From IMG/VR virus record IMGVR_UViG_2718218098_000003: DNA of 51,596 bases. The stretch is one strand, 5' to 3'. The notes below the pieces were generated by a model. The model worked only from the letters and a program-made list of their open reading frames with translations, was not told the DNA's origin and made no database searches. Each line of letters opens with the position of its first letter. The stretch's first letter is position 1. The DNA is from a virus. Its lineage: Duplodnaviria; Heunggongvirae; Uroviricota; Caudoviricetes. The position numbers were made by a program, and so were the translations under genes. Shown here piece after piece: positions 3,407-33,698 of this stretch.

Positions 3407-6032
3407 TTGCATACTCCTTAGCCCAGCGGGGCAGTGATAACGTTTTAATAGCTGGCCATTCATCGGTATTCAGGCAGTCAGCCAGGGTCCTCAGATTGCG
3501 GTGATATTCCTGCTGGCCTGCCAGTTTTGCTTCTTCGCCCATCATGAAAATCTCAACCGGGTAACGTCCGCATTCAACAGTTGTGCTGGCAACCAGAAAA
3601 ACGAAAGTTGGCAGCACGCCAAACTGTGCTTCATAACCGTCACTGTAGAATGCATCCTGAACGTGATAGCGGTAGTCGTAATAAGCCGTTTTGAATCGTT
3701 GAATATCCGCTGTGGTTTTCACGTCCATGATCCAGTGAAATTCAGGAATAATTTTGTCCGGACGGCACCGACACAAAATTCCTGTTTCCGGATCTTCCCA
3801 GTAAATTGATGATTCAGCGTGTCCGGCGCTTTCAACAAGCCATTGCCCCAGCGGCAAAGCCATAACGCTTTGATACATGAGTTCAATTTTCCGGCCTTCT
3901 TCCGCAGTGATAACCGTTTTTCCTGTGCTTGCGCATTCCATCAGAAACGCTTTCTCTTCTTCTTTTCCGGCGTTTGTACGGCGGTTAAATTCAGGTGCTA
4001 CGATAAAGCGGTTACTGAATTCTTCCGGTTCAAGTACCCGGCAGTGGAAAGCGGTTCCTAAATCGAGCGTTTTTGTCTTTGTGGTGTCCACGGGGGCATT
4101 TTTACGCCACAAATACAGTGCCGGAGTATCAGCAATGTCATCGAGCTGAGACTTACTGACACCGGGACCCGCGTGGTAATTCTCATTCGAAATTCCGTAA
4201 TAAATACCTGGCTCTATGTCTTCTACGATTACGGGATCTGCGACTTCGCCAGTTTCATCACTGCAATCGCGATGCGGATCGCTGCCAGCATTCTCATTGT
4301 GCGGATGTTCAGCGCCTTCCATTTCCTCCGGATCTTTTTCCTTAGCTTCAACCTGATTCTCTTCACCGAATGTTTCCTGGTATGTTGCGTCGCCCATCAC
4401 CGCACCACAGTCAGGGCAGTTATCCCCGCCAGTCTGACCGCAGGCATTGCAGACTATTTCCGGTTCCTGTTGCACTACTGGCTCAGGTTGTTTCGCATCC
4501 GGGCTGATTTTTTCCGTTTCTGGCTGGTTCTGGTACACAGAATCGCGAGTCTGGATCCCCTTAACCCATTTCGGATCGTTCGGGTCGCTAATCCCTTCAA
4601 CAAATTCTCCGCGAGAGGCAGCCAGTAATTTGTCTGCATCGACAGGATTTTTGGGCGGAATGTTTTTCCGGGCTTCATGGAGTTCTGCCCGCAGTTTCTG
4701 ATATTTCGCATCAACAGAATTTACCTGTGACTGAGCATCCAGCGACTGCGTGTCCTGATGATGTTCAGTTGCATCCGGTTCCACTGTTTCAGCCGTTGCC
4801 TGTTCATCTGCCATTGCGCAAGATGGTTGCAGTTTTTCTTCATCATCCTGTTTTTCTTCTTCTGTTACACGCTGCGGCATCGGGGCAGAGGAACGACCGC
4901 AGGCAATATCCACGATTTCTGGATCAGGGTTGGCATGATCAGTTTCAGTCAGTACTTTGTTCAGATATTCAGTGACGTGTGCGGGGATAACCTCGATCCC
5001 AATTGGTGCTTCTTTTACGGACGCAACCACGATGGCGCGGGAATAATCCAGCCCACCAGGCATGGTGATGAATTTGTCGCGGAAAACAGAAAAGGGTGGT
5101 TTATTTTCAGCGATAATTTCCTCGACACGTTTAGCGTGTGCCGGATGAAGGTTATAAATGTCCACGTCCATTGAACGAGCCAGTACGCCAGTGGCTACGT
5201 CGCGCGCCAGTGACGTCAGATCGTGAACGAAACCTTCGCCGCGATCGGTGAGGTTCCCGCCGCCAGCATTAGCGCCGGAAGCCGTGCGCGTGATGCGTGA
5301 AACACGATTTCCTTTCATCCACTCTTTTGTCAGCAGACCGCGATCGGTGTAGTCTGCGTCCAGGTATGCTTCGAAAAAAGCAGTCATCAGCCCCAGGCTT
5401 GAATTGCCTGGATTAGGGAAAACTCTGTCAGTATCACGCACCAGTTTGTGGAGATCGCGAATTTCCAGCGGGTCGAGCAGGCTGGTTTTGTGGGAAACAG
5501 CCAGGGCAGTAACAGCTGGTAGTTCTTCAGCTCGTGCAATGTGTAATGCCTGTAGTTCGTCGCGTGAAACGTGCGTTACCGGTTTTTCGCTGCCGTGTTG
5601 AGCAAGCCAGCGAATGGGCAGCTCCTGACCGGAAATCGGGAGTAGCATATTCTCCTCAATCTCCGTCATGTCTTCGCCATTAACATTGGTATTGTCAGTG
5701 CTGGCTGGTTTGTCCTGCGCAGAGGATGAGGGCGCGATAAATACCATTGTGATGCCATCTTCCCCGCCTTTTTCGTAACGGTTGCAGAATTCCGTATCAA
5801 ATACGCCTTCTGGTGGAAGGTCATCAACAACGGGCAAATTGACGCGAACAGGTTTTTTAAAGTCATCTTCATCGTAGCCAGCATCGTCAATCGCAACAGC
5901 ACCACGGGAGATGGCAATGGATAATTTTTTCGCTTCAGCCCAGTAGAAACCGCCTTTAATACCGAGACGTTTTCTTACTTTGTCATTTTTTGCTTCGTAA
6001 TACAGTGGGTAAACTTGTTTATCGGTGCTCAT
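3399..6032 (-). CDS. recE: Exodeoxyribonuclease VIII (RecE)
   Basis: 877-aa [39 protein letters not shown]... matches recalled RecE; immediately upstream of recT. Confidence 0.9.
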
Positions 6033-28957: not shown

Positions 28958-29144
28958 ACTGCAGGCGCTGCGTCAGGCGCGCCTTGATTTATTAACCGGT
29001 AAACGGGTGGTGTCGGTCCAGAAAGATGGTCGCAGAATTGAATATACGGCAGCCTCTCTGGATGCGCTTAATCGTGCTATCAATGATGCGGAGTCGGTAC
29101 TGGGGATAACCCGCCGCCGTCGTCCGCTGGGAGTGAGGTTATGA
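28941..29144 (+). CDS. W: Head-tail joining protein W
   Basis: 67 aa, KRVVSVQKDGRRIEYTAASLDAL. Confidence 0.8.
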   Translation: MVTVAELQALRQARLDLLTGKRVVSVQKDGRRIEYTAASLDALNRAINDAESVLGITRRRRPLGVRL

Positions 29145-30733
29145 AACGAACGCCAGTCCTGATTGATGTAAACGGCGTTCCGCTTCGTGAGAGTCTCAGC
29201 TACAACGGGGGCGGCGCAGGATTTGGCGGGCAAATGGCGGAGTGGTTGCCACCGGCGCAGGGTGCCGATGCGGCTCTGTTGCCTGCGTTGCGTCTGGGGA
29301 ATGCCCGCGCAGATGATCTGGTGCGCAATAACGGAATAGCGGCTAATGCGGTGGCCCTGCATAAGGATCACATTGTCGGGCATATGTTTCTGATCAGCTA
29401 CCGTCCGAACTGGCGCTGGCTGGGGATGCGGGAGACCGCAGCAAAAAGCTTTGTCGATGAGGTGGAGGCGGCCTGGTCGGAATACGCAGAAGGGATGTTT
29501 GGCGAGATCGATGTGGAAGGGAAACGCACATTTACGGAATTTATCCGTGAAGGTGTGGGCGTTCATGCGTTTAACGGTGAAATCTTTGTGCAGCCGGTCT
29601 GGGATACGGATACCACGCAGTTATTCCGTACACGTTTTAAAGCCGTGAGTCCTAAACGGGTGGACACGCCTGGACACGGTATGGGGAACCGTTTCCTGCG
29701 GGCCGGGGTGGAAGTCGATCGGCATGGACGGGCTGTTGCGTACCATATCTGTGAGGATGATTTTCCGTTCTATGGAAGTGGACGCTGGGAGCGGATCCCG
29801 CGTGAACTTCCCACCGGGCGTCCGGCCATGCTGCATATTTTCGAGCCGGTGGAGGACGGGCAGACCCGTGGAGCTAATCAGTTTTACAGCGTCATGGAAC
29901 GGCTGAAAATGCTCGATTCCCTGCAGACCACGCAGCTTCAGTCGGCCATAGTGAAGGCGATGTATGCAGCGACGATTGAAAGTGAACTCGATACCGAAAA
30001 GGCCTTTGAATATATCGCGGGTGCACCGCAGGGTCAGCAGGATAATCCGCTCATTAATATTCTGGAGAAGTTCACCCGCTGGTATGACACGAATAACGTG
30101 ACGCTGGGCGGTGTCAAAATTCCGCACCTTTTTCCCGGGGATGATCTGAAACTGCAGACTGCGCAGGATTCAGACAATGGATTTTCTGCGCTTGAACAGG
30201 CGCTGCTGCGGTATATCGCCGCCGGTCTTGGCGTTTCCTACGAACAGTTGTCCCGTGATTACTCGAAGGTCAGTTACTCAAGTGCCCGTGCTTCAGCCAA
30301 TGAGTCGTGGCGCTATTTTATGGGGCGACGAAAATTTATTGCGTCCCGGCTGGCCACGCAGATGTTTTCCTGCTGGCTGGAAGAGGCGCTTCTTCGGGGG
30401 ATTATTCGTCCGCCACGGGCGCGTTTTGATTTTTATCAGGCGCGTTCAGCCTGGTCACGGGCAGAGTGGATTGGCTCCGGAAGAATGGCCATTGACGGAC
30501 TCAAGGAGGTTCAGGAATCGGTGATGCGCATTGAGGCCGGACTGAGCACGTATGAGAAAGAGCTGGCACTGATGGGCGAGGATTATCAGGACATTTTCCG
30601 CCAGCAGGTCAGGGAATCTGCAGAGCGGCAAAAAGCCGGACTCTCACGCCCGGTGTGGATAGCGCAGGCGTATCAGCAGCAGATAGCGGAGAGTCGCAGA
30701 CCGGAAGAGGAGACAACACCACGTGAGACGTAA
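29141..30733 (+). CDS. B: Portal protein B
   Basis: 530 aa, lambda gpB-like; gene order. Confidence 0.85.
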   Translation: MKRTPVLIDVNGVPLRESLSYNGGGAGFGGQMAEWLPPAQGADAALLPALRLGNARADDLVRNNGIAANAVALHKDHIVGHMFLISYRPNWRWLGMRETAAKSFVDEVEAAWSEYAEGMFGEIDVEGKRTFTEFIREGVGVHAFNGEIFVQPVWDTDTTQLFRTRFKAVSPKRVDTPGHGMGNRFLRAGVEVDRHGRAVAYHICEDDFPFYGSGRWERIPRELPTGRPAMLHIFEPVEDGQTRGANQFYSVMERLKMLDSLQTTQLQSAIVKAMYAATIESELDTEKAFEYIAGAPQGQQDNPLINILEKFTRWYDTNNVTLGGVKIPHLFPGDDLKLQTAQDSDNGFSALEQALLRYIAAGLGVSYEQLSRDYSKVSYSSARASANESWRYFMGRRKFIASRLATQMFSCWLEEALLRGIIRPPRARFDFYQARSAWSRAEWIGSGRMAIDGLKEVQESVMRIEAGLSTYEKELALMGEDYQDIFRQQVRESAERQKAGLSRPVWIAQAYQQQIAESRRPEEETTPRET

Positions 30734-32228
30734 TCTTTCACACATTATTGCCGCAGCATTCAATGAACCGCTGCTTCTGGAGCCCGCCTATGCGCGGGTT
30801 TTCTTTTGCGCGCTCGGGCGCGAGATGGGGGCCGCAAGTCTTTCGGTACCGCAACAGCAGGTACAGCTTGATGCTCCCGGAATGCTGGCTGAAACGGACG
30901 AGTACATGGCCGGAGGTAAACGACCGGCCCGTGTTTACAGGGTGGTGAATGGTATTGCTGTACTGCCGGTGACAGGCACGCTGGTGCACCGGCTGGGGGG
31001 GATGCGGCCATTTTCCGGAATGACAGGTTATGACGGCATTGTCGCCTGTCTTCAGCAGGCAATGTCGGATACCCAGGTGCGGGGTGTACTGCTGGATATT
31101 GACAGTCCTGGTGGGCAGGCCGCCGGTGCGTTTGACTGCGCTGACATGATTTACCGCCTCCGGCAGCAGAAGCCTGTCTGGGCGCTGTGCAATGACACGG
31201 CCTGTTCTGCGGCAATGCTGCTGGCATCGGCCTGTTCCCGTCGGCTGATTACCCAGACATCCCGTATTGGCTCCATTGGCGTGATGATGAGCCATGTCAG
31301 CTATGCCGGTCATCTGGCGCAGGCCGGTGTGGATATCACGCTGATTTACTCAGGGGGGCACAAGGTGGATGGCAATCAGTTTGAATCCCTGCCGTCAGAG
31401 GTTCGTCAGGACATGCAGCAGCGCATTGATGCGGCGCGCCGGATGTTTGCTGAAAAAGTGGCGATGTATACCGGTTTATCTGTGGATACGGTTATGGGGA
31501 CAGAGGCCGCTGTTTTTGAAGGTCAGTCAGGTATTGAGGCCGGGCTGGCGGATGAATTAATCAATGCGTCGGATGCCATCAGCGTGATGGCCGCGACGCT
31601 GAACACACATGATACAGGAGGCACTATGCCGCAATTAACTGCAACGGAAGCCGTCGCGCAGGAGAACCAGCGAGTGATGGGGATCCTGACATGCCAGGAA
31701 GCGAAAGGACGTGAACAGCTTGCCTCGATGCTGGCAGGACAACAGGGCATGAGCGTTGAACAGGCCCGGGCGATTCTGGCCGCGGCGGCACCGCAGCAGC
31801 CGGTGGCATCCACGCAGAGTGAAGCCGATCGCATTATGGCGTGTGAAGAAGCGAACGGTCGTGAACAACTGGCGGCAACGCTGGCGACGATGCCGGAGAT
31901 GACGGTGGAAAAAGCCCGCCTGATCCTGGCTGCTTCACCGCAGGCGGATGCCGGACTATCACTCCGTGATCAAATCATGGCCCTGGATGAGGCGAAAGGG
32001 GCTGAGGCGCAGGCTGAAAAACTGGCGGCCTGCCCGGGGATGACCGTGGAGAATGCCCGGGCTGTACTGGCTGCTGCATCAGGTAAAGCTGAACCAGTCT
32101 CTGCCTCCACGATATCCATGTTTGAACGTTTCATGGCGAACCATTCACCGGCAGCGGTGCAGGGCGGCATGTCACAGACGTCAGCAGACGGTGATGCGGA
32201 CGTAAAAATGCTCATGGCCATGCCATAA
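30723..32228 (+). CDS. C: Head maturation protease C (S49 family) with nested scaffold (Nu3-like) C-terminal region
   Basis: 501 aa; S49 peptidase core; three ~45-aa repeats in C-terminal part. Confidence 0.8.
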   Translation: MRRNLSHIIAAAFNEPLLLEPAYARVFFCALGREMGAASLSVPQQQVQLDAPGMLAETDEYMAGGKRPARVYRVVNGIAVLPVTGTLVHRLGGMRPFSGMTGYDGIVACLQQAMSDTQVRGVLLDIDSPGGQAAGAFDCADMIYRLRQQKPVWALCNDTACSAAMLLASACSRRLITQTSRIGSIGVMMSHVSYAGHLAQAGVDITLIYSGGHKVDGNQFESLPSEVRQDMQQRIDAARRMFAEKVAMYTGLSVDTVMGTEAAVFEGQSGIEAGLADELINASDAISVMAATLNTHDTGGTMPQLTATEAVAQENQRVMGILTCQEAKGREQLASMLAGQQGMSVEQARAILAAAAPQQPVASTQSEADRIMACEEANGREQLAATLATMPEMTVEKARLILAASPQADAGLSLRDQIMALDEAKGAEAQAEKLAACPGMTVENARAVLAAASGKAEPVSASTISMFERFMANHSPAAVQGGMSQTSADGDADVKMLMAMP

Positions 32229-32264: not shown

Positions 32265-32612
32265 ATGGTAACGAAAACCATCACTGAACAGCGTGCGGAA
32301 GTACGTATTTTTGCCGGTAATGATCCGGCTCATACCGCCACAGGCAGCAGCGGGATTTCCTCGGCAACACAGGCACTGACCCCCCTGATGCTGGATGAGG
32401 CCACCGGGAAACTGGTGGTCTGGGACGGACAGAAAGCCGGTAGTGCGGTTGGCATACTGGTACTGCCGCTTGAAGGCACAGAGACGGCGCTGACGTATTA
32501 CAAGTCGGGGACCTTTGCGACGGAGGCAATTCACTGGCCTGAGAGTGTGGATGAACACAAAAAGGCCAACGCCTTTGCCGGCAGTGCCCTGAGTCACGCG
32601 GCGCTGCCGTAA
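32265..32612 (+). CDS. D: Head decoration protein D
   Basis: 115 aa, lambda gpD-like (GNDPAHTATG...TPLMLDEATGKLVVWDG). Confidence 0.85.
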   Translation: MVTKTITEQRAEVRIFAGNDPAHTATGSSGISSATQALTPLMLDEATGKLVVWDGQKAGSAVGILVLPLEGTETALTYYKSGTFATEAIHWPESVDEHKKANAFAGSALSHAALP

Positions 32613-32669: not shown

Positions 32670-33698
32670 ATGGGATTGTTTACGACCCGCCAGTTACTCG
32701 GTTATACCGAACAAAAAGTTAAATTTCGTGCGCTGTTTCTGGAGCTGTTTTTCCGCCGTACGGTGAATTTCCATACCGAAGAGGTGATGCTGGACAAAAT
32801 TACCGGAAAAACGCCGGTGGCGGCCTATGTCTCCCCGGTTGTTGAAGGAAAAGTGCTGCGTCATCGTGGTGGTGAAACCCGCGTGTTACGTCCGGGCTAC
32901 GTCAAGCCGAAACACGAATTTAATTACCAGCAGGCGGTTGAACGTCTTCCCGGTGAAGATCCGGCTCAGTTGAACGACCCGGCCTACCGTCGTCTGCGTA
33001 TCATCACTGATAACCTCAAACAGGAAGAGCATGCCATTGTCCAGGTGGAAGAAATGCAGGCGGTAAATGCTGTGTTGTATGGCAAATACACCATGGAAGG
33101 AGACCAGTTCGAGAAAATTGAGGTCGATTTTGGCAGGTCGACGAAGAATAACATCACACAGGGTAGCGGTAAGGAATGGTCAAAACAGGATCGTGACACG
33201 TTCGATCCTACACATGATATTGACCTCTACTGCGACCAGGCCAGCGGCCTTGTGAATATTGCCATCATGGACGGTACCGTCTGGCGTCTGCTGAATGGTT
33301 TTAAGCTGTTTCGCGAAAAACTGGATACCCGTCGCGGTTCAAATTCACAACTCGAAACGGCAGTTAAAGATCTGGGCACAGTGGTGTCCTTCAAGGGGTA
33401 TTACGGCGATCTGGCCATTGTGGTGGCGAAAACCTCTTATGTGGCAGAGGACGGTACCGAAAAACGTTATCTGCCGGAGGGCACGCTGGTGCTGGGGAAT
33501 ACTGCTGCAGATGGGATCCGTTGTTACGGTGCCATTCAGGATGCGCAGGCGTTGTCGGAAGGTGTGGTGGCTTCTTCCCGTTACCCGAAACACTGGATGA
33601 CAGTGGGTGATCCCGCTCGTGAATTCACCATGACGCAGTCCGCGCCGCTGATGGTACTCCCTGATCCAGATGAGTTCGTGGTGGTACAGGTGAAATAA
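32670..33698 (+). CDS. E: Major capsid protein E
   Basis: 342 aa, lambda gpE-like. Confidence 0.9.
   Translation: MGLFTTRQLLGYTEQKVKFRALFLELFFRRTVNFHTEEVMLDKITGKTPVAAYVSPVVEGKVLRHRGGETRVLRPGYVKPKHEFNYQQAVERLPGEDPAQLNDPAYRRLRIITDNLKQEEHAIVQVEEMQAVNAVLYGKYTMEGDQFEKIEVDFGRSTKNNITQGSGKEWSKQDRDTFDPTHDIDLYCDQASGLVNIAIMDGTVWRLLNGFKLFREKLDTRRGSNSQLETAVKDLGTVVSFKGYYGDLAIVVAKTSYVAEDGTEKRYLPEGTLVLGNTAADGIRCYGAIQDAQALSEGVVASSRYPKHWMTVGDPAREFTMTQSAPLMVLPDPDEFVVVQVK

Follow-up and report, generated by a model that had tools for sequence, protein, structure and literature searches.

The scaffold of bacteriophage λ, Nu3, is needed for incorporation of the portal, and it interacts with the protease C, with E and with itself (PMC3224144). 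Nu3 is thought to be degraded by C (PMC3224144), and C and Nu3 are both essential (PMC10695390). Packaging of the scaffold into proheads, followed by its degradation by the protease, is known for λ only (PMC3224144).

In phage 21, the corresponding genes are gene 5 (1506 nt) and, nested within it, gene 6 (603 nt). The GenBank record M81255.1, which dates from the 1990s, marks three repeat_region features in gene 6, named 'Tri1 box' (5542-5645), 'Tri box' (5682-5792) and 'Tri3 box' (5823-5936), with the remark 'function unknown; putative'. The source paper of this record is reportedly that of Smith and Feiss (1993, Gene 126:1-7), and we found no discussion of the Tri boxes in the open-access literature. 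Product names in the record (L001) are inconsistent, the portal gene 4 being labelled 'head-tail preconnector gp5' and shp being described as 'also known as gp6'; such labels could mislead automated annotation transfer.

We analysed a stretch of 51,596 nucleotides of viral DNA (Caudoviricetes; IMG/VR record IMGVR_UViG_2718218098_000003), referred to below as the window. A first-pass annotation, made from the letters and a list of open reading frames (ORFs), had noticed three repeats of about 45 residues within positions 31650-32080, in what appeared to be the scaffold-like part of a protease resembling λ gpC.

The protease gene and its neighbours

The repeats lie in a gene that begins with GTG and runs from 30723 to 32228 on the plus strand, encoding a protein of 501 amino acids (aa). 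This is the counterpart of λ C and phage 21 gene 5, a fusion of head maturation protease and scaffold. Over its entire length (aa 1-501) the protein matches phrog_53, 'head maturation protease', in a PHROG search (E = 4e-224), and it aligns without gaps with the equally long product of phage 21 gene 5. The ORF length had been read correctly in the first pass, as had the fact that it exceeds that of λ gpC, which has 439 aa. The gene order is portal, C, decoration protein, major capsid protein: the portal ORF (29141-30733, 530 aa) lies upstream of the protease gene, and ORFs for the decoration protein (32265-32612, 115 aa) and a λ-E-type major capsid protein (32670-33698, 342 aa) lie downstream, each product being 98% identical to its phage 21 counterpart. 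The GTG start overlaps the 3' end of the portal gene by 11 nt (30723-30733), likewise in phage 21, which is consistent with translational coupling inside the head operon.

DNA identical (100%) to the gene at 30723-32228 is present in the chromosomes of the mouse E. coli strains M6-M19, and 1,866 of 5,426 complete E. coli genomes carry the gene at a query coverage of at least 80%, mostly with 90-95% identity. The window shares with phage 21 (M81255.1, OL657228.1) its gene lengths, internal ribosome-binding site and start, three units, offsets and neighbours, with 93-95% aa identity; the head module overall is 95-98% identical in aa sequence, and the protease domain 95%. The differences are point changes only, with identity distributed as a mosaic, and the window copy is a prophage integrated in an E. 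coli chromosome. From the exact DNA match to E. coli chromosomes and the identity with phage 21, we conclude that the window is an E. coli prophage carrying a phage-21-type head module.

A Peptidase S49 (SppA-like) domain spans 31158-31598 on the plus strand (aa 146-292; Pfam PF01343, E = 5e-34, scoring 118 bits where the cut-off is 24.9). A sequence search of the PDB with the window protein returned SppA only, covering the protease domain; the match to solved SppA chains (3rst and 4kwb, E = 1e-15) extends over aa 77-290 and is wider than the Pfam S49 span. Ser162 and Lys214 are invariant in an alignment of five phages. In the match to SppA, Ser162 falls on the serine of the 'AASGG' segment and Lys214 on the site of the general base; these are the catalytic residues of SppA, so that Ser162 and Lys214 would be the positions of a putative Ser/Lys dyad.

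Three units within a nested scaffold gene

A second, in-frame gene is nested within the protease gene on the plus strand (31626-32228). It starts with ATG at Met302 of the 501-aa protein, and its predicted product of 200 aa (pI 4.65, 22% alanine) equals the protease C-terminus. A Shine-Dalgarno sequence, AGGAGG, lies at 31616-31621 on the same strand, at a site annotated as a ribosome-binding site in phage 21. GGAGG and a following ATG are conserved in 63 of 63 unique orthologous genes, and a Shine-Dalgarno sequence with ATG is found at the homologous site in λ (gpC Met309), N15 gene 6, Gifsy-1 and phage 21 gene 6. The coordinates of the nested gene relative to gene 5 match those of phage 21 gene 6 (603 nt), and phage 21 gp6 and the 200-aa product are 93% identical in aa sequence (tblastn against phage genomes). 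The family phrog_8399, 'head scaffolding protein', matches three times in the window protein. All three repeat units fall wholly within the nested ORF, the counterpart of λ Nu3 and phage 21 gene 6, and downstream of the S49 domain, in agreement with the earlier placement of the repeats in the C-terminal scaffold part of a gpC-type protease.

The RefSeq record of λ (NC_001416.1) gives nu3 as 5132..5737 (201 aa; L003 2333-2938), starting at Met239, inside the S49 domain and without an upstream Shine-Dalgarno sequence. The λ Shine-Dalgarno and ATG that are homologous to those of phage 21 gene 6, N15 gene 6 and the window (31616-31628) belong to Met309, giving a product of 131 aa that corresponds to residues 309-439 of C. 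Thus, the RefSeq start of nu3 looks outdated.

The three repeats of about 45 residues are present as described. The strings quoted in the first-pass annotation map to aa 332-355, 382-405 and 433-453 (nt 31716-31787, 31866-31937 and 32019-32081), and the full units, all on the plus strand, extend over 31656-31799 (unit 1, aa 312-359), 31815-31949 (unit 2, aa 365-409) and 31956-32090 (unit 3, aa 412-456), with start-to-start spacings of 50 aa and about 47 aa. They are 47-51% identical to each other and share the consensus ..ER.R...I..C.EAKGRE.LA..LA....MTV..AKA.LAAAP; the first helix is longest in unit 1, which is also the copy closest to the canonical single unit. A C-terminal tail follows (32091-32225, plus strand; aa 457-501), with a predicted helix (FERFMANHSP). 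In an alignment, the sequence after unit 3, FERFMANHSPAAVQGG..., is homologous to the λ Nu3 tail (LDRLMQGAP...), LDRLMQGAPAPLAAG.... When the Tri boxes of phage 21 are projected through the gapless alignment, each sits within one of the independently delimited units: Tri1 at 31693-31796 in unit 1, 'Tri' at 31833-31943 in unit 2 and Tri3 at 31974-32087 in unit 3. We conclude from these positions that the triple repeat is already known, as the Tri-box triplication of phage 21 gp5/gp6, annotated since the early 1990s.

Pairwise local alignments of the units (BLOSUM62) scored 100, 89 and 94, against 24-26 ± 5 in 1000 composition-preserving shuffles (z of 12-16). None of the 1000 shuffles reached the observed scores; hence, the Ala-rich composition does not account for the similarity. 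In the DNA, a seed-based finder detected the repeat only as a 49-nt segment of 73% identity with a 150-nt period, and Tandem Repeats Finder reported nothing for the repeat region. Compared codon by codon, the units agree at 58-71% of first and second positions but at only 31-40% of third positions, and about half of the residues that are identical between units are encoded by different codons. Because codon position 3 has diverged while positions 1 and 2 have been kept, we conclude that the duplication is old and has been preserved as protein sequence. Explanations in terms of a DNA repeat were dropped, since the repeat exists at the protein level and DNA repeat finders see almost nothing of it.

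A Pfam search of aa 302-501 gave no match above noise, and an NCBIfam search of the unit gave no match. DUF7178, HHH_5 and Asparaginase_C were rejected as identities of the unit, all three being noise far under the cut-offs. The only families that cover the unit are the PHROG whole-protein families 53, 8399, 1999, 8940 and 17040.

Nucleotide identity between the window gene (30723-32228) and phage 21 (L001 1598-3103) is 100% at the 5' end, 88-89% around 31423-31622 and 84% around 32023-32122. Units 1 and 2 are 97-99% identical to phage 21 DNA, and unit 3 with its flanks 84-94%; synonymous divergence from orthologues is 0.04 in units 1 and 2 versus 0.36 in unit 3. This mosaic identity along the gene suggests recombination breakpoints within it, of the kind that make up ordinary lambdoid mosaicism. 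The 2022 annotation of phage 21 (OL657228.1; L002) places two CII sites in gene 6, at 2506-2519 and 2740-2753 on the minus strand. Both are matches to the pattern ttgynnnnnnttgy, they correspond to about 31631-31644 and 31865-31878 in the window, and they look like chance pattern matches in a coding region.

For pN/pS, the window gene was compared with 63 unique orthologous genes, of which 62 are not identical to it. The protease domain gave 0.13, the units together 0.21 and the tail 0.22. Unit 2 alone gave 0.81, from very few substitutions, and values for single units are noisy because of the unequal identity of units 1-2 and of unit 3 with its flanks to phage 21 DNA. The signature residues (I, EAxG.E, LA..LA, MT, A..L) are found in every unit of phage 21, Gifsy-1 and a four-unit variant described below. 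We conclude that the triplication is kept by selection on the protein.

AlphaFold modelled unit 1 alone (alignment of 68 sequences) as a three-helix bundle (pLDDT 91.2, pTM 0.73), with helices at residues 2-17, 25-32 and 39-48 and with EAKGRE in the short segment between the first two. In an AF2 model of the whole 200-aa product (alignment of 21 sequences), the units appeared as three helical modules resembling one another, with pLDDT values of 75-83, the linkers had values below 63, and a C-terminal helix was placed at residues 160-173. With a pTM of 0.28, this model does not fix how the modules are placed relative to one another. In the predicted picture, the units fold on their own and are joined like beads on a string by flexible Pro/Gln/Ala linkers.

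Copy number of the unit in related proteins

Alignment with gpC/Nu3 homologues, another check named in the first-pass annotation, identified one unit each, followed by a homologous C-terminal tail, in λ gpC (439 aa), N15 gp5 and protein C of the Aeromonas phage phiARM81ld, and three units each in phage 21 and Gifsy-1. λ gpC/Nu3 resembles the window protein in its S49 domain (60% identical), the homologous internal Shine-Dalgarno and ATG, the unit itself (about 50-57% identical), the homologous tail and the gene order; however, λ has a single unit, and its proteins are shorter (Nu3, 131 aa versus 200 aa; C, 439 aa versus 501 aa). MAFFT paired the λ unit with unit 3, because of the shared tail. 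In place of units 1 and 2, a long segment rich in Ser, Thr, Ala and Gln is found in λ, N15 and phiARM81ld; in λ, a low-complexity linker of about 45 aa stands where the window has units 1 and 2, the linker being about 35 aa longer than here. The difference between 501 and 439 aa therefore amounts to two extra units minus the longer λ linker. Thus, the earlier suggestion that the repeats extend the protein holds in so far as there are three units against one in λ, but the net gain is only 62 aa. No homologue of the same length lacking the repeats was found; phage 21 gp5 and the genes of about 1,866 complete E. coli genomes (at least 80% coverage) carry three units.

We searched 1.84 billion representative proteins with a 45-position profile of the unit, derived from alignment A3. 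The profile matched 1,606 protein clusters at E ≤ 1e-3, of which 170 reached E ≤ 1e-10. Although ranking by score favours multi-copy proteins, 135 of the best 150 matches have a single unit; two units occur in 8 of them and three in 3. A single unit was found in 52 of 54 full-length matches. Across the family, the unit ends at a median of 51 aa from the C-terminus, and a Pfam S49 domain is present in 54 of the 55 full-length sequences (the window protein and the 54 matches). We conclude from this distribution that a large family of S49-linked scaffolds has the unit as its core, with a single copy as the rule. Variants with two, three and four units were revealed by a first homologue search, which returned mostly gene fragments; a scan of viral contigs with a full-length alignment returned almost only near-identical relatives.

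The units of Gifsy-1 are 73% (unit 1), 77% (unit 2) and 65% (unit 3) identical to the window units at the same position. Since same-position identity (65-77%) exceeds that between neighbouring units (47-51%), we conclude that the triplication predates the split between phage 21 and Gifsy-1. In the metagenomic protein P0169, the two units share 63% identity with one another but only about 30-50% with every other unit in the comparison, which indicates that they arose by a separate duplication.

Copy number also varies among closer relatives. One IMG/VR relative (L075, 3001-4353; 451 aa, with a protease domain 94% identical to that of the window) has two units, with exactly 50 aa missing; the deletion junction lies in the EAKGREQLA segment that is common to units 1 and 2 and fuses them, as expected from recombination between units. 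A second relative (L069, 3001-4446) has a 19-aa in-frame deletion inside unit 2. A third (L073) has an apparent frameshift, its match of 1,502 nt being no multiple of three. When complete E. coli genomes were searched for the two-unit junction, no single-piece exact match ranked at the top, in a search that joins the two halves across an extra unit; the two-unit allele is at most rare in these genomes. At the other extreme, a 538-aa S49 peptidase of E. coli (WP_096934546.1; NZ_CP076274.1; L088 1628-3244, and L087) has four units. It shares the architecture of the window protein and belongs to a related head module, with a capsid protein 83% and a protease domain 73% identical to those of the window. 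Of 5,426 complete E. coli genomes, about 104 match the four-unit gene in one piece and about 1,866 carry the three-unit gene. The last three of the four units share 79-87% identity, indicating recent amplification or homogenisation of these units. In draft assemblies, the four-unit gene is almost always called 'partial', likely because contigs break in the near-identical units. Thus, natural E. coli prophage variants carry two, three or four units, and the family range is one to four.

Possible roles of the repeated unit

Very probably, the repeats are three tandem copies of a conserved core module of Nu3-type scaffolds, about 45 aa long, encoded both in the 3' part of a phage-21-type protease gene and in the nested scaffold gene, and acting as a contact module. 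We consider repeated protein-contact modules of an assembly scaffold to be the most likely role of the units. By analogy with λ Nu3 and gpC, the units would be protein-protein contact elements of the internal scaffold, mediating self-association and/or binding of the major capsid protein and the portal, and the 200-aa scaffold would gain three binding modules per chain instead of one. The units also make up the C-terminal part of the 501-aa protein and would for this reason bring a small number of protease copies into the prohead; the protease would next degrade the units before DNA packaging. Scaffolds with three units and scaffolds with four serve major capsid proteins that are 83-85% identical, and in a close relative only two units are present. 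Valency may therefore not be critical.

We reasoned that the units might instead set distance. Under such a spacer or ruler model, only unit 3, beside the tail, would do the ancestral job, and units 1 and 2 would fill the space of the λ linker, setting the reach from the protease domain or the scaffold N-terminus to the capsid-binding end. The Ser/Thr/Ala/Gln-rich segment that λ, N15 and phiARM81ld have in place of units 1 and 2 fits this model, as do the coexistence of two- and four-unit variants with nearly the same capsid protein and the occurrence of a 19-aa deletion inside unit 2 in L069. However, a pure spacer would have no need of the signature residues kept in every unit, the units are predicted to be folded rather than disordered, and pN/pS over the units is 0.21; hence, we regard the model as unlikely, if worth keeping in view. 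The conserved charged turn (EAKGRE) could alternatively be a docking or cleavage site for the S49 protease, with extra units supplying extra cut sites for clearing of the scaffold. Degradation of Nu3 by C has been reported (PMC3224144), the unit is found almost only together with S49 (54/55), and the most conserved stretch is precisely the charged turn between the first and second modelled helices. This would leave the conservation of the entire 45-aa fold unexplained, however, and no EAKGRE-like motif occurs at the N-terminus of the window portal, where the λ portal is annotated as processed, so that we find this explanation rather improbable.

Neither DNA-level features nor chance offers a better account. 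Regulatory or recombination sites, such as the opposite-strand CII patterns of OL657228, or genes on the minus strand could in principle underlie the repeat, given that two CII-pattern matches are annotated within phage 21 gene 6 and that minus-strand ORFs of 77-104 aa overlap the region. Against this, conservation between units is confined to codon positions 1 and 2, position 3 being near random (31-40%), Tandem Repeats Finder finds no DNA repeat, and none of the minus-strand ORFs in the region has a PHROG match; we consider such features very improbable indeed. That the similarity arose by chance or from composition, as the 22% alanine of the product might suggest for a low-complexity tail rich in Ala, is refuted by the shuffles, which never reach the observed scores (z of 12-16), and by recovery of the unit in 1,606 independent protein clusters; the likelihood of this explanation is close to nil.

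With contact modules of the scaffold as the preferred role, a broader proposal may be made, tentatively and with rather more doubt than confidence. The unit could be an autonomous three-helix-bundle domain, lacking a Pfam or NCBIfam model, that forms the universal core of S49-linked prohead scaffolds; its copy number, from one to four and variable among E. coli prophages with closely related capsids, would stem from at least two independent lineages of duplication and would tune the valency or the reach of the scaffold. If so, natural variation supplies a series of deletions and expansions with which the engagement of shell and portal by a scaffold could be tested. Prophages with one, two, three and four units and closely related capsids are material for testing unit binding, valency in prohead assembly and entry of the protease. 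The consequences for genome annotation are small, since the head module is of the phage 21 type and the triple repeat has been on record for three decades. Our analysis adds the placement of the unit as the single-copy core of an S49-linked family, the prediction of three helices, the lack of a curated model and the range of copy numbers from one to four. The unit is the most conserved part of λ-type scaffolds, yet it has no curated domain model.

The first-pass annotation had offered 'an expanded scaffolding or delta-like domain' as an interpretation of the repeats. The scaffold part is indeed expanded, and 'delta-like' is apt as a functional analogy only. The delta domain of HK97 is the N-terminus of the capsid protein and no part of the protease; the repeats described here lie in the protease/scaffold gene, and the capsid protein is a separate λ-E-type protein of 342 aa (PF03864 on a related locus), so that an HK97-type delta domain is contradicted. 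In a wider sense, the herpesvirus UL26/UL26.5 proteins, the HK97 delta domain and the C-terminal helix-turn-helix of the P22 scaffold are comparable systems of protease and scaffold or of scaffold contact. They follow a common logic: the protease is directed into the procapsid by scaffold sequence that it shares or is fused to, and the contacts are made by small helical elements. In the size and topology of their predicted fold, and in their beads-on-a-string repetition, the units would resemble the domains of staphylococcal protein A, GA modules and the Ebh/Embp repeats.
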